Part shown: one piece after another, positions 6,444 to 14,728 of the stretch
Position numbering within the stretch: position 1 is the first letter of the stretch
Layout of the letters: every line of letters begins with the position of its first letter
NCBI GenBank assembly: GCA_050013835.1
Contig: JBEKEM010000004.1
Location: forward strand, 101,569 to 165,568
DNA: 64,000 nucleotides
DNA from: Acidimicrobiales bacterium
GTDB lineage: Bacteria > Actinomycetota > Acidimicrobiia > Acidimicrobiales > Bog-793
Reading direction: 5' to 3'
Notes under the pieces: model-generated
Database searches by the model: none
The model's input: the letters and a program-made list of their open reading frames with translations, nothing else
What the model was told of the DNA's origin: nothing
Program-made: the position numbers and the translations under genes

Positions 6444-6729
6444 AACTCCGAGCTCCTTGACGGGTCATCGAGAGCAGGACCCAGCTTCGCACGTTGGAGT
6501 GCCAAGACCGGTGGCGAACCAGTCGCCTGCCGTCGCTGCCGTTCGAGGGGGGCGGTCGTCTTCGGCAACGATCTCTCCGGCCCGATGATTCAAATGAACG
6601 CGTGGAACCGACGCGATTTTGCCAGTTGCACTAGCATGGACCGACGGAATACAGCAGCGACGGGCGGCGGCTCATTGCAGCATGCTGCTTGCTAAAGTCC
6701 TGGTCAAGTCCCCTAATTAGGAGCCTGAA

Positions 6730-7797
6730 ATGACTGTCCGGCGTTTGTTCTACGTTTTCATACTGGCACTGCTCGGTACTGCATGGCTTCCCCTGGCGAG
6801 CGCCCAGGCGACGACGGGTAGCGGTACCTCGACGCCGCCTGTGATCGCCGTGCGTGTTGCCAACAGCGTGCTCGCCAAGGAGGGCAGCCTGAATGCGGCG
6901 TGGGTGACCCCGGAGTTCAGCGGCACTACTTACGCGGCTGCCGTGGCGAGTGACCCCACGAATGGTTTCCTCGGCGCGTATATCGACGGCTCTGGAAACG
7001 TGTGGGCCAAGGAAGGCAGCCTGACGGCTCCGTGGGTGGAGGAATGGAACGCATCGACTTCAGGGGTCGAGGCCGATCAAGTGGCCGTGGCCAGTGATTC
7101 CACGAATGGTCCCCTCATCGCTGTGGTGGACCACAATGGCAACCTGTGGGTCAAGGAAGGCAGCCTGACGGCTCCGTGGGTCGAGGAATGGAACGAATCG
7201 ATTGCAGGGGTCTTGGCCGAAACAGGTTCCAATGAACTGGCCGTCGCGAGCGATCCCACGAATGGTCCCCTCATTGCTTTTGTGGACAACTCTCATGACG
7301 TGTGGGCCAAGGAAGGCAGCTTGACCGCGGCGTGGACCGAGGTATGGAACGAATCGACTACAGGGGTCGACGCCGATCAAGTGGCCGTCGCGAGCGATTC
7401 CACGAATGGTCCCCTGATCGCTGTGGTGGACGAAGATTCCTATCTGTGGGCCAAAGAAGGCAGCCTGACTGCGCCGTGGCACGACGAGTACAACAACGCC
7501 AACTACGTGGCAGTCGCGAGTGACCCCACGAATGGCCCTCTCATCGCCGTGCAGGATGAAAGTAGTTACAACCTGTACGCGAAGGAAGGCAGCGTCACCG
7601 CGGTGTGGTACGACGAATACAACAATGTCTTCAACGGTAACTATCGATTCTCCGTCGCGAGTGACCCCACGAATGGTGCCCTCATCGCAGTGGTGGACTC
7701 GAGTCGCATCGTGTGGGCCAAGGAAGGCCTGCTAGCACCGACGTGGACAGACGAATACAACGGCACCGCCGGTACCACGGTTGCCGTTGCCGGTTAA
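6730..7797 (+). CDS. Secreted repeat protein, predicted 7-bladed beta-propeller, function unknown
   Basis: An AGGAG SD lies 6 nt before the ATG. The signal peptide is MTVRRLFYVFILALLGTAWLPLASAQA. Seven tandem ~42-50 aa repeats follow (VAVASDxTNGPLIAxVD...WAKEGSLTAPW..E.N). A strong terminator hairpin lies downstream. Confidence 0.85.
   Translation: MTVRRLFYVFILALLGTAWLPLASAQATTGSGTSTPPVIAVRVANSVLAKEGSLNAAWVTPEFSGTTYAAAVASDPTNGFLGAYIDGSGNVWAKEGSLTAPWVEEWNASTSGVEADQVAVASDSTNGPLIAVVDHNGNLWVKEGSLTAPWVEEWNESIAGVLAETGSNELAVASDPTNGPLIAFVDNSHDVWAKEGSLTAAWTEVWNESTTGVDADQVAVASDSTNGPLIAVVDEDSYLWAKEGSLTAPWHDEYNNANYVAVASDPTNGPLIAVQDESSYNLYAKEGSVTAVWYDEYNNVFNGNYRFSVASDPTNGALIAVVDSSRIVWAKEGLLAPTWTDEYNGTAGTTVAVAG
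6943..7794 (+). repeat. Intragenic tandem repeats (about 126-150 bp units, with a 300-bp two-unit periodicity)
   Basis: 7081-7131 and 7381-7431 differ at 4 of 51 nt. The VASD.TNG.LIA and AKEGSLTA.W blocks recur seven times. Confidence 0.85.
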
Positions 7798-7839
7798 CCT
7801 AATTTCGCAAACGCGACCAACCTAATTCCACAAGCGCCA

Positions 7840-7883
7840 GCGCCAACCGAGAATCAGGTCTCCTGATTCTCGGTTGGCGCTTT
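7840..7883 (+). terminator. Rho-independent terminator of the repeat-protein gene
   Basis: A perfect 19-bp stem (gcgccaaccgagaatcagg / cctgattctcggttggcgc) with a 3-nt loop is followed by ttt. Confidence 0.8.
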
Positions 7884-8264
7884 ACTCCGACAACGAATTT
7901 GATTCCTCGCACCAAACGCCAGCCACCCGGTCATCGGGCTGGTTGTCGAGACGTGTAGGGAGAACGTCGCTCAAATCCGTGTTCCCGCGGCAAGCAGCCG
8001 CCGCGGAACTTCCGCTTGCTTGGGCACCGACTTACTTGGGTCACGCCTGGGCCACGCCTGAACGACCCAAGGTACTCGGCTGGGGTCGTCGCCCAGCCTG
8101 CGCCATCCTCGATGTGTTACCGGTGATCGTCAAAGGCTCAGACTTCTGTGACGCCTGCCTGCGGCTCCAAATCGACGAGGAACGAAGCATTCGGCCTGTA
8201 GGTGCGCTGTGCTTGCCTTCCGCGCTGCGACCTAGGTGCTCAACCCCACCTCAGAGGCACTTTG

Positions 8265-8337
8265 CTGGCGGGGGAGGACTCGAACCTCCAACCTCCTGAT
8301 CCAAAGTCAGGCGTTCTGCCTCTTGAACTACCCGCCA
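8265..8337 (-). tRNA. tRNA-Gln (anticodon UUG)
   Basis: A manual cloverleaf fits: acceptor TGGCGGG/CCCGCCA with U1-A72 and G73, D stem GTTC/GAAC, anticodon stem CCTGA/TCAGG with loop CTTTGGA, and T arm GGAGG-TTCGAGT-CCTCC. The tRNA is 73 nt and CCA is not encoded. Confidence 0.9.
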
Positions 8338-8616
8338 CCGAGTCAAGACCTCTACGACCTTCTCGTCAGCTCGCGGTACCACGGACTCGCAGGTCGAAAC
8401 GACTCAAGCCTCGCGCAGGTAGGCCCCGACGCGCGCGATCTCGAGATCCTGGCACAACTTCACGTCCCTACAAGACGAGCAACGACCAGTGTCGCTAAGA
8501 CGCGGCCTCACCGAACAATCGAAAACCGCTGATTTGTGCCATCCTCGCGATGGAAATCACCGATATTCTTCAGTGGAGATGGACGTGTTCCGGTTTCTCG
8601 CTGAGAATCGCGAGCG

Positions 8617-10383
8617 ATGAAACGACTTGGGTCTGTAACGATCGCCGTTTGCACGCTGATCGGTGCCTCACTGTACGGTGGAGTCTCGCTGATGAACAGC
8701 GCATTGGCGCGAACCATGCCCGTCGGTACCTTTCGCGTCTTCCCGTTGGGTTTGGTCGTTTCCACGGGACATTCGCCGCCTTTGACCGCAGAGAATCCTG
8801 GACCGGCGAGCGCGGGGCGTCGCATAGTCACCGTCCTACCCGACCTGCGCCCAACTCCTTCAGCCAAGTCCTCGGCGAGTGGCAAGCCGTCTCTGTCATC
8901 CGTCAAGAGTTCCGCCTCGGCCTTGCCCAGCTCGGGTGGAATTGCCCGACCTATGGCGAGGGTAAGCAATGCAACCATCTGCACGTTTTCTTCGTTCAGA
9001 TGGCAAGGAACTCCCTTCAAGAGAACCGTAAACTGCACAGGTACCAACCGGCGGGTCGAGATCTCCGTGTTCGTTCCGGCGAATACGCGAAGCACACCCT
9101 TCACTGCTGAGGTTCGCATCACGGCGAGCAATCGCTTTGGAATCAGCACAGCGATCTGGCATGTCGTCGTGAAGGCACGACACCGTCGGCCCACACCGAC
9201 GACGACAACGCCGCCAGCTACAACCACCACGCCGCCGACCACGACCACGACAACGCCACCGACCACGACAACGCCACCGACCACGACAACGCCGCCGACC
9301 ACGACAACGCCACCGACCACGACAACGCCGCCGACCACGACAACGCCACCGACCACGACCTCGACATCGCCGACCACAACGACGACCACGACGACCACAA
9401 CGACGACCACGACGTCTACGACGACTACGACGCTGGCGCCTGCTGCACCCGTCATTACAGAACAACCAACGAACCAAACAGTTCCTGCGGGCGATTCCGC
9501 GAGCTTCACGGCCTGGGCGTCGGGCACTCCGACCCCCAGTATCCAGTGGAAGTACTCATCCAACGGCGGCACAAGCTGGGCGTATGCCTCCGGCGCCTCC
9601 TCGACCTCGCGGACCTACTCGTTCACGGCGTCGAGCGCGGAGAACAGCTACGAGTACGAAGCGGTGTTCACGAACACCGGCGGATCCGCAACGACCAACC
9701 CCGCGACGCTGACAGTCACGAACCGCAACTCCTACAACTGGTCCGGCTACGTGGACACAGGCCCGACAGGCACCTTTGCCTCGGTCAATGGTGACTGGAC
9801 GGTACCGACTCTGACATGCAATTCAGGCAAGAACGCCTACGCCTCGGCGTGGATCGGGATCGACGGCTACGGGAGCAGCACGGTCGAGCAGGACGGCATC
9901 GAAGCGGACTGCAACACGAACAACGTGGCTTCGTATTACGCCTGGTATGAGATGTACGGGGACAACAACATCAACAGCGGCAACGAGGTCCAACTTCCCG
10001 CCGGGCACCCGGTATCCCCTGGGGATGCGATGTCGGCGTCCATCAGCGTCGTTGCCAACGTATGGACCCTCGAGATCTCAGACTCGACGCAGGGGTGGCA
10101 CTACACGAGGTCTCCGGCAATCACGTTCTCGGCGGCACAGGAATCAGCGGAATGGATCGTCGAAAGACCCGAGGTGAATGGCAACACAGCGGTCCCGCTC
10201 GCCGACTTCGGGTCGGTGGCCTTCACAAATGCGACGGTGAACGGGACCACCGATTCCATCTCTGCGTTCACCGCGTTGTCCATCGAAATGGTCGATAGCG
10301 GTTCGGCGATTTTGGCCGCGCCCGGACCGCTCAGCTCCTCGGGCGAGAACTTCACGGACAATTGGGAAGCTCTCGGTCCTTAG
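8617..10383 (+). CDS. Secreted multidomain protein with C-terminal G1 (eqolisin) glutamic peptidase domain
   Basis: The signal peptide is MKRLGSVTIAVCTLIGASLYGGVSLMNSALA. A Thr/Pro linker and an Ig-like segment (PVITEQPTNQTVPAGDSASFTAWASGTPTPSIQWKY) follow. The C-terminal domain carries the G1 motifs NWSGY, WIGIDG, VEQDG, YYAWYEMY and SAEWIVERP. Confidence 0.8.
   Translation: MKRLGSVTIAVCTLIGASLYGGVSLMNSALARTMPVGTFRVFPLGLVVSTGHSPPLTAENPGPASAGRRIVTVLPDLRPTPSAKSSASGKPSLSSVKSSASALPSSGGIARPMARVSNATICTFSSFRWQGTPFKRTVNCTGTNRRVEISVFVPANTRSTPFTAEVRITASNRFGISTAIWHVVVKARHRRPTPTTTTPPATTTTPPTTTTTTPPTTTTPPTTTTPPTTTTPPTTTTPPTTTTPPTTTSTSPTTTTTTTTTTTTTTSTTTTTLAPAAPVITEQPTNQTVPAGDSASFTAWASGTPTPSIQWKYSSNGGTSWAYASGASSTSRTYSFTASSAENSYEYEAVFTNTGGSATTNPATLTVTNRNSYNWSGYVDTGPTGTFASVNGDWTVPTLTCNSGKNAYASAWIGIDGYGSSTVEQDGIEADCNTNNVASYYAWYEMYGDNNINSGNEVQLPAGHPVSPGDAMSASISVVANVWTLEISDSTQGWHYTRSPAITFSAAQESAEWIVERPEVNGNTAVPLADFGSVAFTNATVNGTTDSISAFTALSIEMVDSGSAILAAPGPLSSSGENFTDNWEALGP
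9256..9363 (+). repeat. Six tandem 18-bp units (cc[ag]ccgaccacgacaacg) encoding PPTTTT
   Basis: The units are read directly at 9256, 9274, 9292, 9310, 9328 and 9346. They sit inside a wider Thr/Pro low-complexity tract at about 9196-9432. Confidence 0.9.
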
Positions 10384-10542
10384 ATCCCGCGTTCGCAGGT
10401 GTGTCGGCTCCAACCTTCGGACGATTCGGTGTCGCGCCACAAACCGCACCCGGGCGGCGCGGACCACCCAGCGCCCCTCGCTCAGGTCCGGCTGCCCGCC
10501 GTGAATTCCGATCGGATTCCATCAGCTATCGTCTGCGAAGCC

Positions 10543-10705: not shown

Positions 10706-11521
10706 TCACGTGACGGCGCGCGTGGCCGCGACGAGAGCTGACAGCTTCGTCGACTCGACCCTCCTTCGGATCTCGCTGGCGACGGCCGGCGCTTCCGGCG
10801 GCTCACACTCGACGAACCAGGTCGACCCGCTCCCGGCCAGAGACGGCTGCAATCCGGACGCCTCCGCGAGGAGCTCCCGGTAGTGCGCGAGCCGCGGCTC
10901 GACGACGATTGCCGCTCTTTCCAGGTCGTTCGTCGCGGATCCCGGCGCCGGGGCGCCGACCTCGTCGAACGCCGCGTAGACCGCAGCAGTCGACACGCCG
11001 AATGAAGGTGTGACGATGACAAAGGCCTGGTCAGCGGGTGCCAGGGCTTCGACGATCTCGCCGACACCGCGCACCTTCGCGCGACCGCCTCGCAGACAGA
11101 AGGGCACGTCAGCGCCGAGACGCGCCGCGAGCGCGAGATCCTTGACTCCCGCCCAGCGGAGCACGGCCGCGGCGTCGGCCGATCCTCCGCCGAGACCTGC
11201 TCCGGGCGGGATCCTCTTCACGAGCCGGATGTGTGCCCGCCGACCAACGAGATCGAGGGCCCGGACGACCAGGTTCTCGCTGACCGGCACGTCCGAGAGC
11301 ACCGGGACTTCGACTCCGGAACCCACCCAGCGGACGGCGTCGACGACCTCGAGACCGTCGCCAGCGCTGAATTCGAGCTCGTCGGCGAGGTCGAGTGCGA
11401 CCATCTCCGCTTCGATGAGGTGGTACCCGTCGTCACGTCGCCCGACGATGCGGAACGTTCGGGTCAGCTTGGCGGGGGCGAGCCTGCGATCGACCTTCGG
11501 CACGCTGCCAGCTTGCCCCAA
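10706..11521 (-). CDS. ispE: 4-diphosphocytidyl-2-C-methyl-D-erythritol kinase
   Basis: The sequence shows APAKLTRTFRIVGRRDDGYH and the GHMP kinase motif PPGAGLGGGSADAAA. The annotated start overlaps the rsmA 3' end by 58 nt, so the true start may be a downstream GTG. Confidence 0.85.
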   Translation of the reverse strand: MGQAGSVPKVDRRLAPAKLTRTFRIVGRRDDGYHLIEAEMVALDLADELEFSAGDGLEVVDAVRWVGSGVEVPVLSDVPVSENLVVRALDLVGRRAHIRLVKRIPPGAGLGGGSADAAAVLRWAGVKDLALAARLGADVPFCLRGGRAKVRGVGEIVEALAPADQAFVIVTPSFGVSTAAVYAAFDEVGAPAPGSATNDLERAAIVVEPRLAHYRELLAEASGLQPSLAGSGSTWFVECEPPEAPAVASEIRRRVESTKLSALVAATRAVT

Positions 11522-12333
11522 GCCGCGACGTCGAGCCGCTCGGCACGCAGTCGGGCGTCGACGTCGGCAGCCTCGAACGCCTCGGGCGTCACCACTGAAC
11601 TGAGCGATCGCCGGAGCATCTTCCTCCTACCGGTGAATCCGGCTCGGACGAGCTCGTCGATCTCCTCGTAGCTCACGAGGCCGGGATCGACTGCGGGCCG
11701 GTCCCGTCGTTCGATGGCGACAAGGACCGAGTCGACTTTCGGGCGCGGATGGAACACCTCGGGCGGCACCCCGCCGACGACTCGCGCCGTCGCGAAGTAG
11801 GCGACCCGGACGCTGACCGCGCCGTAGCTCCGGCTGCCCGGAACGGCGGCGAGGCGGGCACCGACCTCGGCCTGGACCATGACGAGCATTCGGCGGATGG
11901 CCGGCACGTTCTTCAGGATCTCGACGATGAGCGGGGTCGCCACGTTGTAGGGCAGGTTGGCGACGAGCACCCAGCCGGCGCCGGGCTCGTCCGGGGTCGC
12001 GAGGACCTCGTCCCAGTCGAGGCGCAGCGCGTCGGCCTCGACGACGCGAACCGTCCCGGGAACGAGGGAAGGCAGCTCCTCGACGAGGCGGTGGTCGATC
12101 TCGACGGCGGTGACCTGGGCCCCGGTCCGGGCGAGCGCGACGGTCAATGCGCCGAGCCCGGCACCGACCTCGACGACCCGGTCCCCCGCGCCGACCGCGG
12201 CGAGACGCGCGACCCTCTCGACGGTGTTCGGGTCGACGACGAAGTTCTGCCCGAAGGCCTTGCGCGGCGTGATGCCGCGGGCCGCGAGCAGCGTGCGCAG
12301 CTCACCGCGCCCGAGCGGTCGTGGCCCGGTCAC
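11464..12333 (-). CDS. rsmA: 16S rRNA (adenine1518/1519-N6)-dimethyltransferase
   Basis: The N-terminus PRKAFGQNFVVDPNTVERV, the SAM motif VVEVGAGLGALT and the NLPYNVATP motif are all present. Confidence 0.9.
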   Translation of the reverse strand: MTGPRPLGRGELRTLLAARGITPRKAFGQNFVVDPNTVERVARLAAVGAGDRVVEVGAGLGALTVALARTGAQVTAVEIDHRLVEELPSLVPGTVRVVEADALRLDWDEVLATPDEPGAGWVLVANLPYNVATPLIVEILKNVPAIRRMLVMVQAEVGARLAAVPGSRSYGAVSVRVAYFATARVVGGVPPEVFHPRPKVDSVLVAIERRDRPAVDPGLVSYEEIDELVRAGFTGRRKMLRRSLSSVVTPEAFEAADVDARLRAERLDVAAWGKLAACRRSIAGSPPPS

Positions 12334-12338
12334 CGCGA

Positions 12339-13169
12339 TCAGGCGCCGAGGGAGAAGACGGCCGAGACGTTGGCGTTCGTCGCCGCGGCGAGTCGCTCCG
12401 CCGGCTCGCCGCGGATCTCGGCGAGCGCGACGCCGACGAGAGTGACGTAGGCCGGTTCGTTCGGCTTGCCGCGGTGCGGGACCGGCGCGAGGAAGGGCGA
12501 GTCGGTCTCGACGAGCAGGCGGTCCGCCGGGCAGGCGACGGCCGCCTCCCGGACGGATGCCGCGTTCTTGAACGTCACGATCCCGCTGAACGAGAGGTAG
12601 GCGCCGAGGTCGAGGCAGCGCCGGGCCTCGGACTCGCCGCCGGTGAAGCAGTGGATGACGGTCCGCTCCGGCGCGCCACAGGCGCCCAGGATGTCGAACG
12701 TGTCCTCCCAGGCGTCTCGGGTGTGGACGACGAGGGCGAGGTCGTGGCGCTTGGCGAGGTCGATCTGCGCGGTGAACACCTCACGCTGTGCCTCTTTCGG
12801 CGAGTGCTCGTAGTAGTAGTCGAGACCGCACTCGCCGATGGCGACGACCGACCCGGGCGCCTTCGGACCGGGCGGGGGCGCGAGCCCCGCCACGAGGTCC
12901 GCGATCGCTTCGACGCCGCGCGACGCCTCGTGCGGGTGGAGGCCGACCGTCGCCCACACCGCGACGTCGGCGCGTCGCTCGGTGACGCTCTTGGCGAGCT
13001 CGACCGCCTGACGCGACTCGACCTCGGCAGTCCCGATACAGACGAGCCGACCGACACCCCCCTCGGCCGCCCTCGTGATGACGGCGTCGACGCCGCCCGG
13101 GTCCTCGAGATAGGCGTCCTGGATGTGGCAGTGGCTGTCGGTCCAGCGCGGTGCGGTCCCGTCGGTCAT
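12339..13169 (-). CDS. tatD: TatD family metal-dependent hydrolase
   Basis: The homologous part starts at MTDGTAPRWTDSHCHI and includes IGECGLDYYY and the VHTRDA..HCFTG motifs. Its ATG overlaps the metG stop (ATGA at 13166-13169). The upstream 270 codons of the track ORF are a shadow of metG. Confidence 0.85.
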   Translation of the reverse strand: MTDGTAPRWTDSHCHIQDAYLEDPGGVDAVITRAAEGGVGRLVCIGTAEVESRQAVELAKSVTERRADVAVWATVGLHPHEASRGVEAIADLVAGLAPPPGPKAPGSVVAIGECGLDYYYEHSPKEAQREVFTAQIDLAKRHDLALVVHTRDAWEDTFDILGACGAPERTVIHCFTGGESEARRCLDLGAYLSFSGIVTFKNAASVREAAVACPADRLLVETDSPFLAPVPHRGKPNEPAYVTLVGVALAEIRGEPAERLAAATNANVSAVFSLGA

Positions 13170-14728
13170 CGGCCGTCGCCGGCCGATGCCGCGGCCCCCT
13201 GCTCGCGGCGCGGGAAGAGCGGTGCCGCCTTCTCGACGGGGCGTCCCCCCGGGTAGCCACCCCAGCCGAGCGCGCCACCGGCGGCCGCGGCGAGGCCCGG
13301 CGCGGCGACGTCGCCGTCGAGCCCGAGCCGGCGCCAGATCGCCTGGGCGGTCTTCGGGATCGCCGGCGAGGAGAGGACCGCGACGATGCGGAGGACCTCG
13401 AGCGCGTCGCCGAGGATCCCGTCGACCTCTTCGCCCGCCGCGAGCTTCCAGGGTTCGCGCCGTTCGAGCTCGACGTTCGTCTCGTGGATGAGCCGCCACG
13501 TCGCCTCGAGCGCCTCGTGGGGGTTCGTGCGCGCCCAGGCCCCCCGCGCCACCTCGACTGTCTCGGCGGCGAGGGTCGCCAGACGGTTCCCATCGTCTGC
13601 CGGCCGCGGGGCGGGTCCGATCCCGCCGCATTTCGAGGCGACGACGGCGGCCACCCGTTGCAGCAGGTTGCCGAGGTTGTTGGCGAGGTCGGCGTTGTAG
13701 CGGGCGACGAGGCCCTCGTAGGTGATGTCCCCGTCGAGCCCGAGCACGACGTCCCGGAGCAGGTGGTAGCGGAGGGCATCGACGCCGACGTCGGCACCGA
13801 GCGCGACGGGATCGATCTGGTTCGCCCTCGACTTCGCCATCTTTTCGCCGCCGACGAGCAGCCAGCCGTGGGCGATGACCTGGAGCGGCGGGTCGATGCC
13901 CGCCGCCATGCACATCGCCGGCCACCACACGCAGTGGAACCGCACGATCTCCTTCGCCATCAGGTGGTGGACGGCAGGCCACCACGCGGCGAACCGCTCG
14001 TCGTCCTCGCCGTAGCCGATCGCGGTGGCGTAGTTGACGAGGGCGTCGAACCAGACGTAGATGACATGGGCGTCGTCCCAGGGCACCGGGATGCCCCAGT
14101 CAAAGGCCGTCCTCGTGATCGAGATGTCCTCGAGGCCGCCCCGGATGATGCCAAGCGCCTCATTGCGGCGCGACTCGGGGATGACCGCCGCCGGCGCCGA
14201 GGCGTACCAGTCGGTGAGCCGCTCGGCGAACCGGGAGAGCTCGAAGAAGTAGTTCTCCTCCGTGAGCCACTCGACGGGCTTCTCGTGGACCGGGCAGCGT
14301 TCGCCCGGCCCGAGCTCCTCGGCCGAGTAGTACGCCTCGCAGGCGACGCAGTACCACCCGGCGTACGTGCCCTTGTGGATGAACCCGTTGTCGTAGATCG
14401 CCTGGACGAAACGCTGCACCGCCTTCGTGTGGCGGGGTTCGGTCGTGCGGATGTAGTCATCGTTCGAGATGTCGAGCTGCCGCCAGGCCTCCTCGAAATG
14501 GGCGCTCATCGCGTCGACCCAGTCCTGCGGATCCACACCCTGGGCCTCGGCGGCTCGGGCGACCTTCAGGCCGTGCTCGTCGACGCCGGTGAGGAAGAAC
14601 ACGTCGTCGCCGACGAGCCGGTGCCAACGCGCGAGCGCGTCGGCGACGATCGTCGTGTAGGCGGTCCCGAGGTGGGGACGGTCCGTGACGTAGTAGATGG
14701 GCGTCGTGACGAAGAACCGGTCGGGCAC
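13166..14728 (-). CDS. metG: Methionine--tRNA ligase
   Basis: FFVTTPIYYVTDRPHLGTAYTTIVADALARW (HIGH region) and the KMAKSRANQI (KMSKS) motif are present. The proposed GTG start (VPDRFF) lies downstream of the rsmI stop at 14791, but the start is not certain. Confidence 0.85.
   Translation of the reverse strand: MPDRFFVTTPIYYVTDRPHLGTAYTTIVADALARWHRLVGDDVFFLTGVDEHGLKVARAAEAQGVDPQDWVDAMSAHFEEAWRQLDISNDDYIRTTEPRHTKAVQRFVQAIYDNGFIHKGTYAGWYCVACEAYYSAEELGPGERCPVHEKPVEWLTEENYFFELSRFAERLTDWYASAPAAVIPESRRNEALGIIRGGLEDISITRTAFDWGIPVPWDDAHVIYVWFDALVNYATAIGYGEDDERFAAWWPAVHHLMAKEIVRFHCVWWPAMCMAAGIDPPLQVIAHGWLLVGGEKMAKSRANQIDPVALGADVGVDALRYHLLRDVVLGLDGDITYEGLVARYNADLANNLGNLLQRVAAVVASKCGGIGPAPRPADDGNRLATLAAETVEVARGAWARTNPHEALEATWRLIHETNVELERREPWKLAAGEEVDGILGDALEVLRIVAVLSSPAIPKTAQAIWRRLGLDGDVAAPGLAAAAGGALGWGGYPGGRPVEKAAPLFPRREQGAAASAGDGR

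Follow-up and report, generated by a model that had tools for sequence, protein, structure and literature searches.

The window analysed here, a 64,000-nucleotide stretch of Acidimicrobiales bacterium DNA (assembly GCA_050013835.1, contig JBEKEM010000004.1), carries at 6730..7797 on the forward strand a gene for a 355-aa protein with a putative signal peptide and a predicted closed seven-blade β-propeller fold. Its repeat family is new to Pfam, NCBIfam and the Protein Data Bank (PDB); the fold and the architectural role of the family are both well known. On balance, the protein is probably a stand-alone multivalent cell-wall or glycan-binding module, in which the binding, the class of ligand and the multivalency are what we infer. 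A first-pass annotation made from the DNA letters and their translations had noticed a secreted seven-blade repeat protein at this place, and that observation was confirmed as real and mostly well described.

Results

The propeller protein consists of six full repeats and one split repeat

The protein is composed of repeats of about 42-52 aa. A KEG motif occurs in seven copies (aa 50, 94, 142, 194, 242, 285 and 331) and a VASD motif in six only (ASD at aa 72, 120, 172, 220, 262 and 309), from which the protein contains six full repeats and one split repeat, seven blades in total. A hidden Markov model (HMM) of the blade, made from the repeats, likewise detected six full units and an N-terminal partial unit (HMM positions 8-34), and its seven matches were confined to this reading frame. 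The first-pass annotation had counted seven full copies, which is one too many; the N-terminal part-repeat and the terminal strand that it described are present.

Each repeat contains four strands, namely A (VAVASD), B (GPLIAVVD), C (NLWAKEG) and D ((A)PWxxE). The N-terminal piece VIAVRV..VLAKEGSLNAAW aligns with repeat strands B-C-D and the C-terminal TTVAVAG with strand A. The full blades, all on the forward strand, were delimited by DSSP strands in the model described below and span aa 67-106 (6928..7047; strands 67-75, 79-86, 91-96 and 103-106, and the blade HMM), aa 115-154 (7072..7191; blade-HMM match at 119-156), aa 169-206 (7234..7347), aa 215-255 (7372..7494; also by the blade HMM), aa 257-297 (7498..7620; also by the blade HMM) and aa 307-343 (7648..7758; also by the blade HMM). 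The blade at aa 67-106 has the most divergent A-B hairpin of all (NGFLGAYID), and the linker preceding the blade at aa 169-206 (aa 156-168) is the longest and least confident. Blade-to-blade identity averaged 0.65 with a maximum of 0.76 over 41 core columns of the six full blades, and each blade contains 2-3 aromatic residues.

The N-terminus, MTVRRLFYVFILALLGTAWLPLASA followed by QA, has a hydrophobic core of 17 residues between a positively charged n-region and an A-S-A site, laid out as MTVRR-LFYVFILALLGTAWLPL-ASA before QA. These residues were read by eye as a putative signal peptide of aa 1-25 (6730..6804, forward strand; MTVRR, hydrophobic core, ASA before Q), in agreement with the first-pass annotation. 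The segment is conserved in the orthologues P0001 and P0002, including its twin arginines, and export by Sec or by Tat are both possible. The signal peptide has no lipobox and the mature protein has no cysteine, and the product is therefore not a lipoprotein. The mature protein comprises 330 aa and is acidic (pI about 4.05), with 15 tryptophans.

A closed seven-blade ring is predicted

The structure prediction suggested in the first pass was run with AlphaFold2. The single sequence gave a mean predicted local distance difference test score (pLDDT) of 77 and a predicted template-modelling score (pTM) of 0.75. With an input alignment of 15 seven-blade relatives in blade register (alignment A1), the mean pLDDT was 84.5 and the pTM 0.84, with the blades mostly above 90 and with the signal-peptide region and the linker at aa 160-165 below 50. 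DSSP assigned to this model four strands in each of the six full blades, the N-terminal strands 38-43 and 46-51 with a bridge at 59, and the C-terminal strand 350-354, giving 28 strands and a blade number of seven. The closed β-propeller proposed earlier is thereby supported as a predicted structure.

In the model, the ring is apparently closed by a velcro of the 1+3 type, in which the C-terminal strand A (..TVAVAG, 7777..7794, forward strand; DSSP strand 350-354) would complete the closing blade begun by N-terminal strands B, C and D (aa 38-60, 6841..6909, forward strand; strands 38-43 and 46-51, bridge at 59, blade-HMM positions 8-34). Most complete relatives end in ..[VS][AS]G directly past the closure strand, and a ..VAG C-terminus is near-universal, which fits a conserved velcro closure strand. 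Such a closure had been proposed from the half-repeat and the lone VAVAG; the layout and the ends of the relatives fit it, and the closure itself is a prediction of the model.

Foldseek searches against PDB placed the seven-blade lectins PLL, PHL and PLL2-5 of Photorhabdus at the top, with template-modelling (TM) scores of 0.61-0.70. The BNR-repeat protein 3b7f scored 0.62, the lectin BP39L 0.60 and WD40 and RCC1 propellers about 0.5. The structural alignments to PLL and PHL had 12-15% identity and a root-mean-square deviation (rmsd) of 4-5 Å. The likeness to PLL and PHL is one of geometry and is not evidence of family membership.

The repeat has no database entry and a remote WD40 signal

A Pfam hmmscan of the protein at E ≤ 10 returned only Reg_prop (E = 0.22; 12.3 bits against a 20.4-bit cut-off) and Inhibitor_I69 (E = 1.2), and the NCBIfam scan gave no significant match. 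Against PDB chains, phmmer produced chance-level matches only (esterases, Arl5) and the family profile produced none at E ≤ 10; homology to the W-motif of PLL and PHL was likewise not detected, as neither method matched a PLL or PHL chain at E ≤ 10. The HMMER searches of Pfam and PDB proposed in the first pass therefore returned no significant match to a described propeller family. Kelch, YWTD/LDL-B, RCC1, FG-GAP/VCBS, PQQ, tectonin/tachylectin and NHL had no Pfam match at E ≤ 10. For BNR/Asp-box repeats, the SxDxGxTW motif is absent from the protein sequence and Pfam BNR had no match, and the likeness to 3b7f is at the fold level only. Pfam WD40 (PF00400, gathering threshold 27 bits) had no match even at E ≤ 10, under conditions in which a genuine WD40 protein used as control scored E = 2.7e-80. 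The GH...WD signature is also missing: a GH dipeptide does not occur in the protein, strand C has W-[AV]-K-E-G at its end, and strand D holds the invariant tryptophan. The earlier statement that the repeat is not WD40, Kelch, YWTD, RCC1, FG-GAP, PQQ or tectonin holds by Pfam criteria.

Among 78 relatives, no repeat model of a known propeller family covered the propeller region, apart from one Kelch match whose position was not localised; NCBIfam likewise gave nothing for that region in the relatives scanned. Matches to VPS13_C also occurred among relatives, again with no localised position. B_lectin and LRR were rejected as real domains of relatives, since the matches in P0077 are below cut-off and inside the repeat region. 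No description of this family turned up in a literature search for actinobacterial propellers joined to CHAP or cell-wall-binding domains.

Other comparisons suggested a remote relationship to WD40. A tblastn search of a plasmid collection matched an Acaryochloris WD-repeat protein at 29% identity over 82% of the query. In hhalign, the family profile aligned with the Acaryochloris WD40 array at a probability of 89.5% (E 2e-6, 236 columns, blade in register) and with an idealised WD40 consensus repeated seven times, our own construct, at a probability of 70%; both templates are single sequences, and repeats inflate such scores. Strand patterns corresponding to WD40 are h-h-S-x-D-G in strand A, LA...D.G in strand B and h-h-W in strand C. 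Judged from these alignments, the family is probably a distant branch of the WD40 supercluster, below the level of WD40 membership, and not something that arose in isolation. The earlier label "unclassified" stands in that the repeat has no Pfam, NCBIfam or PDB entry, and it is qualified by hhalign, which places the family in the WD40 blade register at a probability of 70-90%.

The matched Acaryochloris protein is a giant WD-repeat protein encoded on the Acaryochloris marina plasmid pREB2 (L013, NC_009927.1 137732-143224) and has near-identical 42-aa blades. These blades happen to carry LWSKEGSL, with the KEGSL turn of the propeller family. The protein gave the tblastn match, and its coincidental KEGSL contributes part of the hhalign score.

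The family is large and mostly C-terminal on secreted enzymes

A word-indexed search identified 54 close homologues, the best of them 48% identical, with orthologues at 48-50%; the exact protein was absent from a 15-billion-sequence collection. An exhaustive profile search returned 914 representatives at 50% identity with E ≤ 1e-3 (the weak end of this list may include WD40 cross-matches), 615 with E ≤ 1e-10 and 278 with E ≤ 1e-30. All named members are from Actinomycetota, namely a Trebonia metagenome-assembled genome, Streptomyces sp. NPDC001584 and the megaplasmid of S. clavuligerus. A scan of genome contigs with the single protein detected one weak Nitriliruptorales locus only. No match was obtained by tblastn against phages and only generic propellers were found in BFVD, indicating that the family is not a phage endolysin module in those collections.

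The consensus of the wider family reads G-x-R-I-G-V-L-x3-G-x3-V-K-E-G-x-L-x-A-x-W-V-x-E. Across the family, each blade keeps K, G and W of the KEG...W motif almost without exception, and the ASDPTNGP hairpin is a subfamily marker.

The propeller is mostly located C-terminal to CHAP, M23, NlpC/P60 or amidase domains, secreted proteases or ricin lectin domains. CHAP was found in 13 of the 54 close homologues, one of which combines CHAP, propeller and PASTA; GH3, cutinase and CAP are also among the partners. In Pfam scans of 78 representatives, the peptidoglycan hydrolase partners were CHAP (8), M23 (7), NlpC/P60 (2), Amidase_2 (1) and Rv2525c-like (1), the protease partners were reprolysin-like (3), astacin (2), trypsin (2), S8 (1) and Peptidase_A4 (1), and the lectin and other partners were ricin-B (3+2), PLA2 (2), fn3 and TIG. 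Many N-terminal partner domains had no Pfam match. Judged by length, roughly 1/10 of the listed members are stand-alone propellers, and the 325-aa homologue of S. clavuligerus is one of them.

This last homologue (L012:2824-3801; Streptomyces clavuligerus ATCC 27064 megaplasmid, NZ_CP027859.1 1663852-1664829) is a secreted seven-blade protein that belongs to the "SGNRIG" subtype; its blades closely resemble one another, and its DNA repeats with a period of 111 nt. The incomplete gene table of PLSDB has no feature there. The commonest partner among close homologues is a conserved domain of ~230 aa (HGGPVQTAPKVYVDFWHW...HELAE.ITDP) within the N-terminal ~290 aa of P0003, P0006, P0012, P0013 and P0016-P0028. 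JGI labels it "serine protease", but Pfam, NCBIfam and PDB searches did not match it, which makes it the second domain here that is uncurated. Two genes sit directly upstream of the propeller-fusion gene P0023, one for a 191-aa protein with no Pfam match (L004:5313-5888) and one for a 493-aa CHAP protein (L004:3797-5278; weak match) in which the blade HMM finds no propeller; a BTAD/TPR regulator is encoded farther upstream. The gene contexts of P0007 and P0023 had no operon in common with the window or with each other.

A binding or targeting role is favoured over the alternatives

Since the module is C-terminal on secreted wall- and protein-cutting enzymes, it is most likely a binding (targeting) module. 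The propeller would act as a non-catalytic binding or targeting module, normally as the C-terminal domain of secreted hydrolases, and its seven near-equivalent blades would attach it multivalently, through avidity, to an extracellular polymer of repeating units, most probably peptidoglycan or a glycopolymer of the cell wall. The window protein would then represent the free version, a secreted lectin-like or wall-binding protein. A carbohydrate-binding role had been guessed in the first pass from the architecture; it is still a guess, by analogy better founded now through the PLL/PHL-like fold and the fusions to hydrolases, proteases and ricin domains.

Several points weigh against a wall- or glycan-binding function. 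Glycan binding is inferred from the fold likeness and the fusion partners. The conserved K-E-G...W could be purely structural or could reflect recent amplification from one blade. The likeness to PLL is at the generic seven-blade level (rmsd 4-5 Å, 12-15% identity), with no sequence relationship, and the remote sequence signal leads to WD40, a superfamily in which most members have proteins or peptides as ligands. The target need not be the cell wall, given that proteases and domains unmatched in Pfam are numerous among the partners; the stand-alone protein itself has no recognisable wall anchor. Between the propeller gene and the neighbouring gene for a secreted Peptidase_A4 protein lie a terminator and a tRNA on the opposite strand. 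The A4 gene is found without a propeller in the related contig L006, and the related contig L008 has no propeller cassette directly beside the tRNA, up to its contig end.

The main rival explanation is that the propeller is a WD40-like scaffold whose ligand is not a glycan but a protein or a peptide (for example a surface or substrate protein, or the stem peptide of peptidoglycan), with the stand-alone form serving as an extracellular adaptor or decoy. We regard this as possible and hold it only tentatively. The two hhalign alignments in blade register (89.5% for the Acaryochloris array, 70% for the idealised consensus), the tblastn match and the proteases among the many partner domains speak for it, but Pfam WD40 has no match at E ≤ 10, the GH...WD signature is absent, and the hhalign scores derive partly from the coincidental KEGSL and from a consensus template of our own making. 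Moreover, the top TM-scores belong to lectins and not to WD40 proteins, and the commonest identifiable partners act on peptidoglycan.

A catalytic propeller (a glycosidase, lyase or esterase, of the BNR/sialidase type or another) whose active site lies on the central axis would be compatible with the presence of 3b7f, annotated as a "putative glycosyl hydrolase with BNR repeats", among the best Foldseek matches (TM 0.62). This is very unlikely, as there is neither an Asp-box (SxDxGxTW) nor a Pfam BNR match, the highly symmetric blades (mean core identity 0.65) lack the blade-specific residues that an asymmetric active site needs, and relatives append the propeller to domains that are already catalytic.

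Equally improbable is an inhibitor or immunity-type protein that blocks a hydrolase, for example the neighbouring Peptidase_A4 or the lytic enzyme of a competitor. The stand-alone secreted form does adjoin the secreted Peptidase_A4 gene, and it lies in a strain-variable segment beside a tRNA, a common place for conflict genes; the module is, however, covalently fused to many different hydrolases, unlike an inhibitor, the A4 gene exists without a propeller in L006, and the terminator and the opposite-strand tRNA between the two genes mean that they are not co-transcribed.

A non-functional chance open reading frame (ORF) or decaying repeat array, for which an atypical base composition (GC 0.60 and GC at third codon positions (GC3) 0.71, against a GC3 of 0.81-0.93 in flanking genes) and the absence of the exact protein from the 15-billion-sequence collection could be cited, is effectively refuted by the intact 355-codon frame with its Shine-Dalgarno (SD) sequence, putative signal peptide and conserved terminator, by orthologues 48-50% identical with conserved flanks and hundreds of relatives, and by the confident fold prediction.

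DNA-level repeats indicate homogenisation of the blades

The first-pass annotation had reported two segments of 51 nt, at 7081-7131 and 7381-7431, that differ at 4 positions, and exactly 4 of 51 mismatches were counted. The similarity extends beyond these segments to a two-blade-period repeat of 255 nt (repeat family D3, forward strand), with copy 1 at 6940..7194 and copy 2 at 7240..7494, 300 nt downstream and 80% identical. Tandem Repeats Finder reported periods of 144, 156 and 129 nt in the gene. Across the whole protein, pairs of blades are 51-74% identical in amino acids and 58-79% in nucleotides.

Between 7000-7131 and the segment 300 nt downstream, nucleotide identity was 88.6%. The same codon was used at 28 of the 35 positions with identical residues (methionine and tryptophan excluded), about twice the 14.3 expected from the codon usage of the gene itself, a figure that the repeats of the gene inflate. 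Identical synonymous codons are in excess, and the DNA copies are more alike than conservation of the protein would demand, which supports the earlier proposal that a two-blade (300-nt) unit was recently duplicated or underwent gene conversion.

The orthologous genes on contigs L010 and L011 have DNA repeats at other registers, a one-blade unit of 174 nt (83%) and a two-blade unit of 321 nt (82%). When the internal blades of the window protein were compared with those of P0002, no positional orthology was found, all pairs being at about 0.6-0.8, and the duplication is therefore not datable by blade-by-blade comparison; the terminal blades are distinct in both proteins. In many relatives, blades within one protein are more alike than blades between proteins, up to identical. 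Such a pattern is expected where internal repeats are recurrently duplicated, undergo gene conversion or cross over unequally, and in our reading the internal blades stay alike because one- or two-blade units are duplicated or converted again and again.

Blade number varies among complete-looking relatives, with seven blades as the mode and 6, 5, 4, 3 and 2 also found by the blade HMM; the counts may reflect the collapse of near-identical tandem repeats in short-read assemblies. The two orthologues, which come from one metagenome, have seven (P0002) and six (P0001) blades. If the variation is real, short members would need to assemble into oligomeric rings, as engineered propellers do (PMC6805158). 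That the window protein represents an undescribed propeller-lectin or wall-binding family with a plastic number of 2-7 blades in complete proteins, each ending in the closure strand ..VAG, in which short members close their rings as homo-oligomers and gene conversion keeps the blades interchangeable, is a doubtful extension of the data. If it were true, homo-oligomeric rings of short-blade members would dimerise or trimerise the attached peptidoglycan hydrolase. The engineered oligomeric propellers would then have an equivalent in nature, and uncultured Actinomycetota would have yielded a new scaffold for multivalent ligand recognition.

The gene has its own expression signals

The frame at 6730..7797 begins with ATG and encodes 355 aa plus a stop codon; it is the sole long frame there with a plausible start. 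An SD-like AGGAG at 6719..6723 (forward strand), 6 nt 5' of the ATG, was read from the sequence and is kept in the orthologous contigs L010 and L011. At 7839..7881 (forward strand), 42 nt past the stop codon, lies a terminator-like perfect 20-bp hairpin with a 3-nt loop (inverted repeat I1) and a weak T tract (TTTACT). Its minimum free energy is -43.3 kcal/mol (z = -9), and compensatory changes in L010 and L011 keep it. The hairpin is likely the terminator of the propeller gene; it was not called in the consensus terminator scan, and a sigma-70 promoter scan of the locus gave no site. Judged by these signals, the gene is monocistronic. The SD sequence, the putative signal peptide, the conserved hairpin and the orthologues P0001 and P0002 with homologous flanks establish the ORF as a real gene for an exported protein.

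The motif CCTAATT has only 4 copies in the window (0.32 expected), and all four flank the propeller gene (6712-6721, 7798-7804 and 7821-7827). A palindrome, CCTAATTAGG, lies immediately 5' of the SD sequence, and a direct repeat, AACCTAATTyCrCAArCGC, is present in two copies immediately past the stop codon. The motif is not conserved in L010 and L011; it may serve as a site for a regulator or be the scar of an insertion.

The propeller cassette lies in a strain-variable segment beside a tRNA gene

Downstream of the propeller gene, ARAGORN identified a tRNA-Gln(UUG) gene at 8264..8337 on the reverse strand, the 3' end of which bounds a variable segment holding the propeller gene. The similarity of the window to L008, whose RsmA is 92% identical, stops exactly at this 3' end (8264), and L008 has no propeller cassette directly beside the tRNA, up to the contig end. 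L006 carries a transposase fragment at the equivalent position, with no blade-HMM match in its 20 kb. Because the L008 similarity ends at the tRNA and L006 has no blade match, the cassette is strain-variable, as judged by these contig comparisons. An att-like duplicate of the tRNA-Gln 3' end, sought to delimit an island, was not found.

The next protein-coding gene (8617-10383, forward strand) specifies a secreted protein of 588 aa that combines an Ig-like domain and a Peptidase_A4 domain (an eqolisin-type glutamic peptidase) with a long linker rich in Pro and Thr. It is conserved beside ispE-rsmA-tatD in L006 and L008, with more Ig repeats in L006. P0110 fuses Peptidase_A4 to a propeller of the family, a weak link between the propeller and the neighbouring A4 gene. 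The block at 6444-10400, containing the propeller gene, the tRNA-Gln gene and the A4 gene, has a GC content of about 0.60 and a GC3 of 0.71-0.74, against 0.70-0.75 and 0.81-0.93 in its surroundings.

Long spurious ORFs lie opposite the Pro/Thr linker region of the A4 gene. Beyond it, a conserved housekeeping cluster, ispE - rsmA(ksgA) - tatD, occupies 10706-13982 on the reverse strand, with metG-like and other genes farther on in relatives. The window's RsmA is 60-68% identical to proteins of named Acidimicrobiales and Acidimicrobiaceae metagenome-assembled genomes and 96% identical to one further protein, which marks the window as Acidimicrobiia-like. Within the 547-aa ORF at 12339-13982, the TatD domain is confined to aa 281-544, suggesting that the listed start is probably too far upstream or that the ORF overlaps another gene.

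Discussion

At 50% identity, the family numbers at least several hundred members, and it takes the place of the "targeting domain" in many lytic enzymes and secreted proteases of actinobacteria. Should it bind walls or glycans, it would explain how such enzymes find their substrate, give engineered lysins or probes a new scaffold for multivalent recognition, and be one more case in nature of propellers that are built from single blades and homogenised. If it is merely a protein-binding offshoot of WD40, the result is a useful annotation and no more. The stand-alone homologue in cultured S. clavuligerus makes the binding idea testable.

WD40 propellers are usually closed by a terminal strand D. 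The family resembles the WD40 superfamily (PF00400), and especially the highly repetitive bacterial arrays, in its strand-by-strand pattern and its seven blades. It differs in its apparent 1+3 closure (C-terminal strand A with N-terminal strands B-D), in the conserved tryptophan in strand D, in a KEG turn in place of WD, and in being secreted and fused to extracellular hydrolases.

The closest structural likeness is to PLL, PLL2-5 and PHL of Photorhabdus (PDB 8q82, 6fhx, 6rfz), which are also single-domain proteins of ~340 aa with seven four-stranded blades, high symmetry and several tryptophans per blade, and for which binding of fucose or O-methylated sugars is characteristic. PLL-family lectins bind sugars in tryptophan-lined pockets between adjacent blades, which gives multivalency (PMC6943638), and these between-blade sites are proposed, by analogy, as a working model for the window protein. 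In contrast to the PLL lectins, the window protein has a different repeat signature and is secreted and actinomycetotal, and the module of its family is mostly a C-terminal appendage of hydrolases.

Highly repetitive propellers have been defined by at least 2 consecutive blades with a blade-to-blade identity above 60%, the median being used (PMC9218822). The window protein resembles the repetitive propellers of PMC6805158 (2019) in exceeding 60%, with a mean of 0.65 over core columns only, and up to 0.90 with identical blades in relatives, and also in its DNA-level repeats, its varying blade number and Actinobacteria as a main host group. Those propellers represent a phenomenon and not a family, and the seeds of that work are ECOD families, which the window repeat matches only remotely.

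The established cell-wall-binding modules (SH3b, LysM, PG_binding_1, LGFP, CW_binding repeats and PASTA) are unrelated to the family propeller in fold and sequence, and for the propeller wall binding is suggested by its fusions. The propeller nevertheless occupies the same slot, C-terminal to CHAP, M23, NlpC/P60 and amidase domains, and shows the recurrent fusion to catalytic domains of peptidoglycan hydrolases by which wall-binding modules are recognised as a class.

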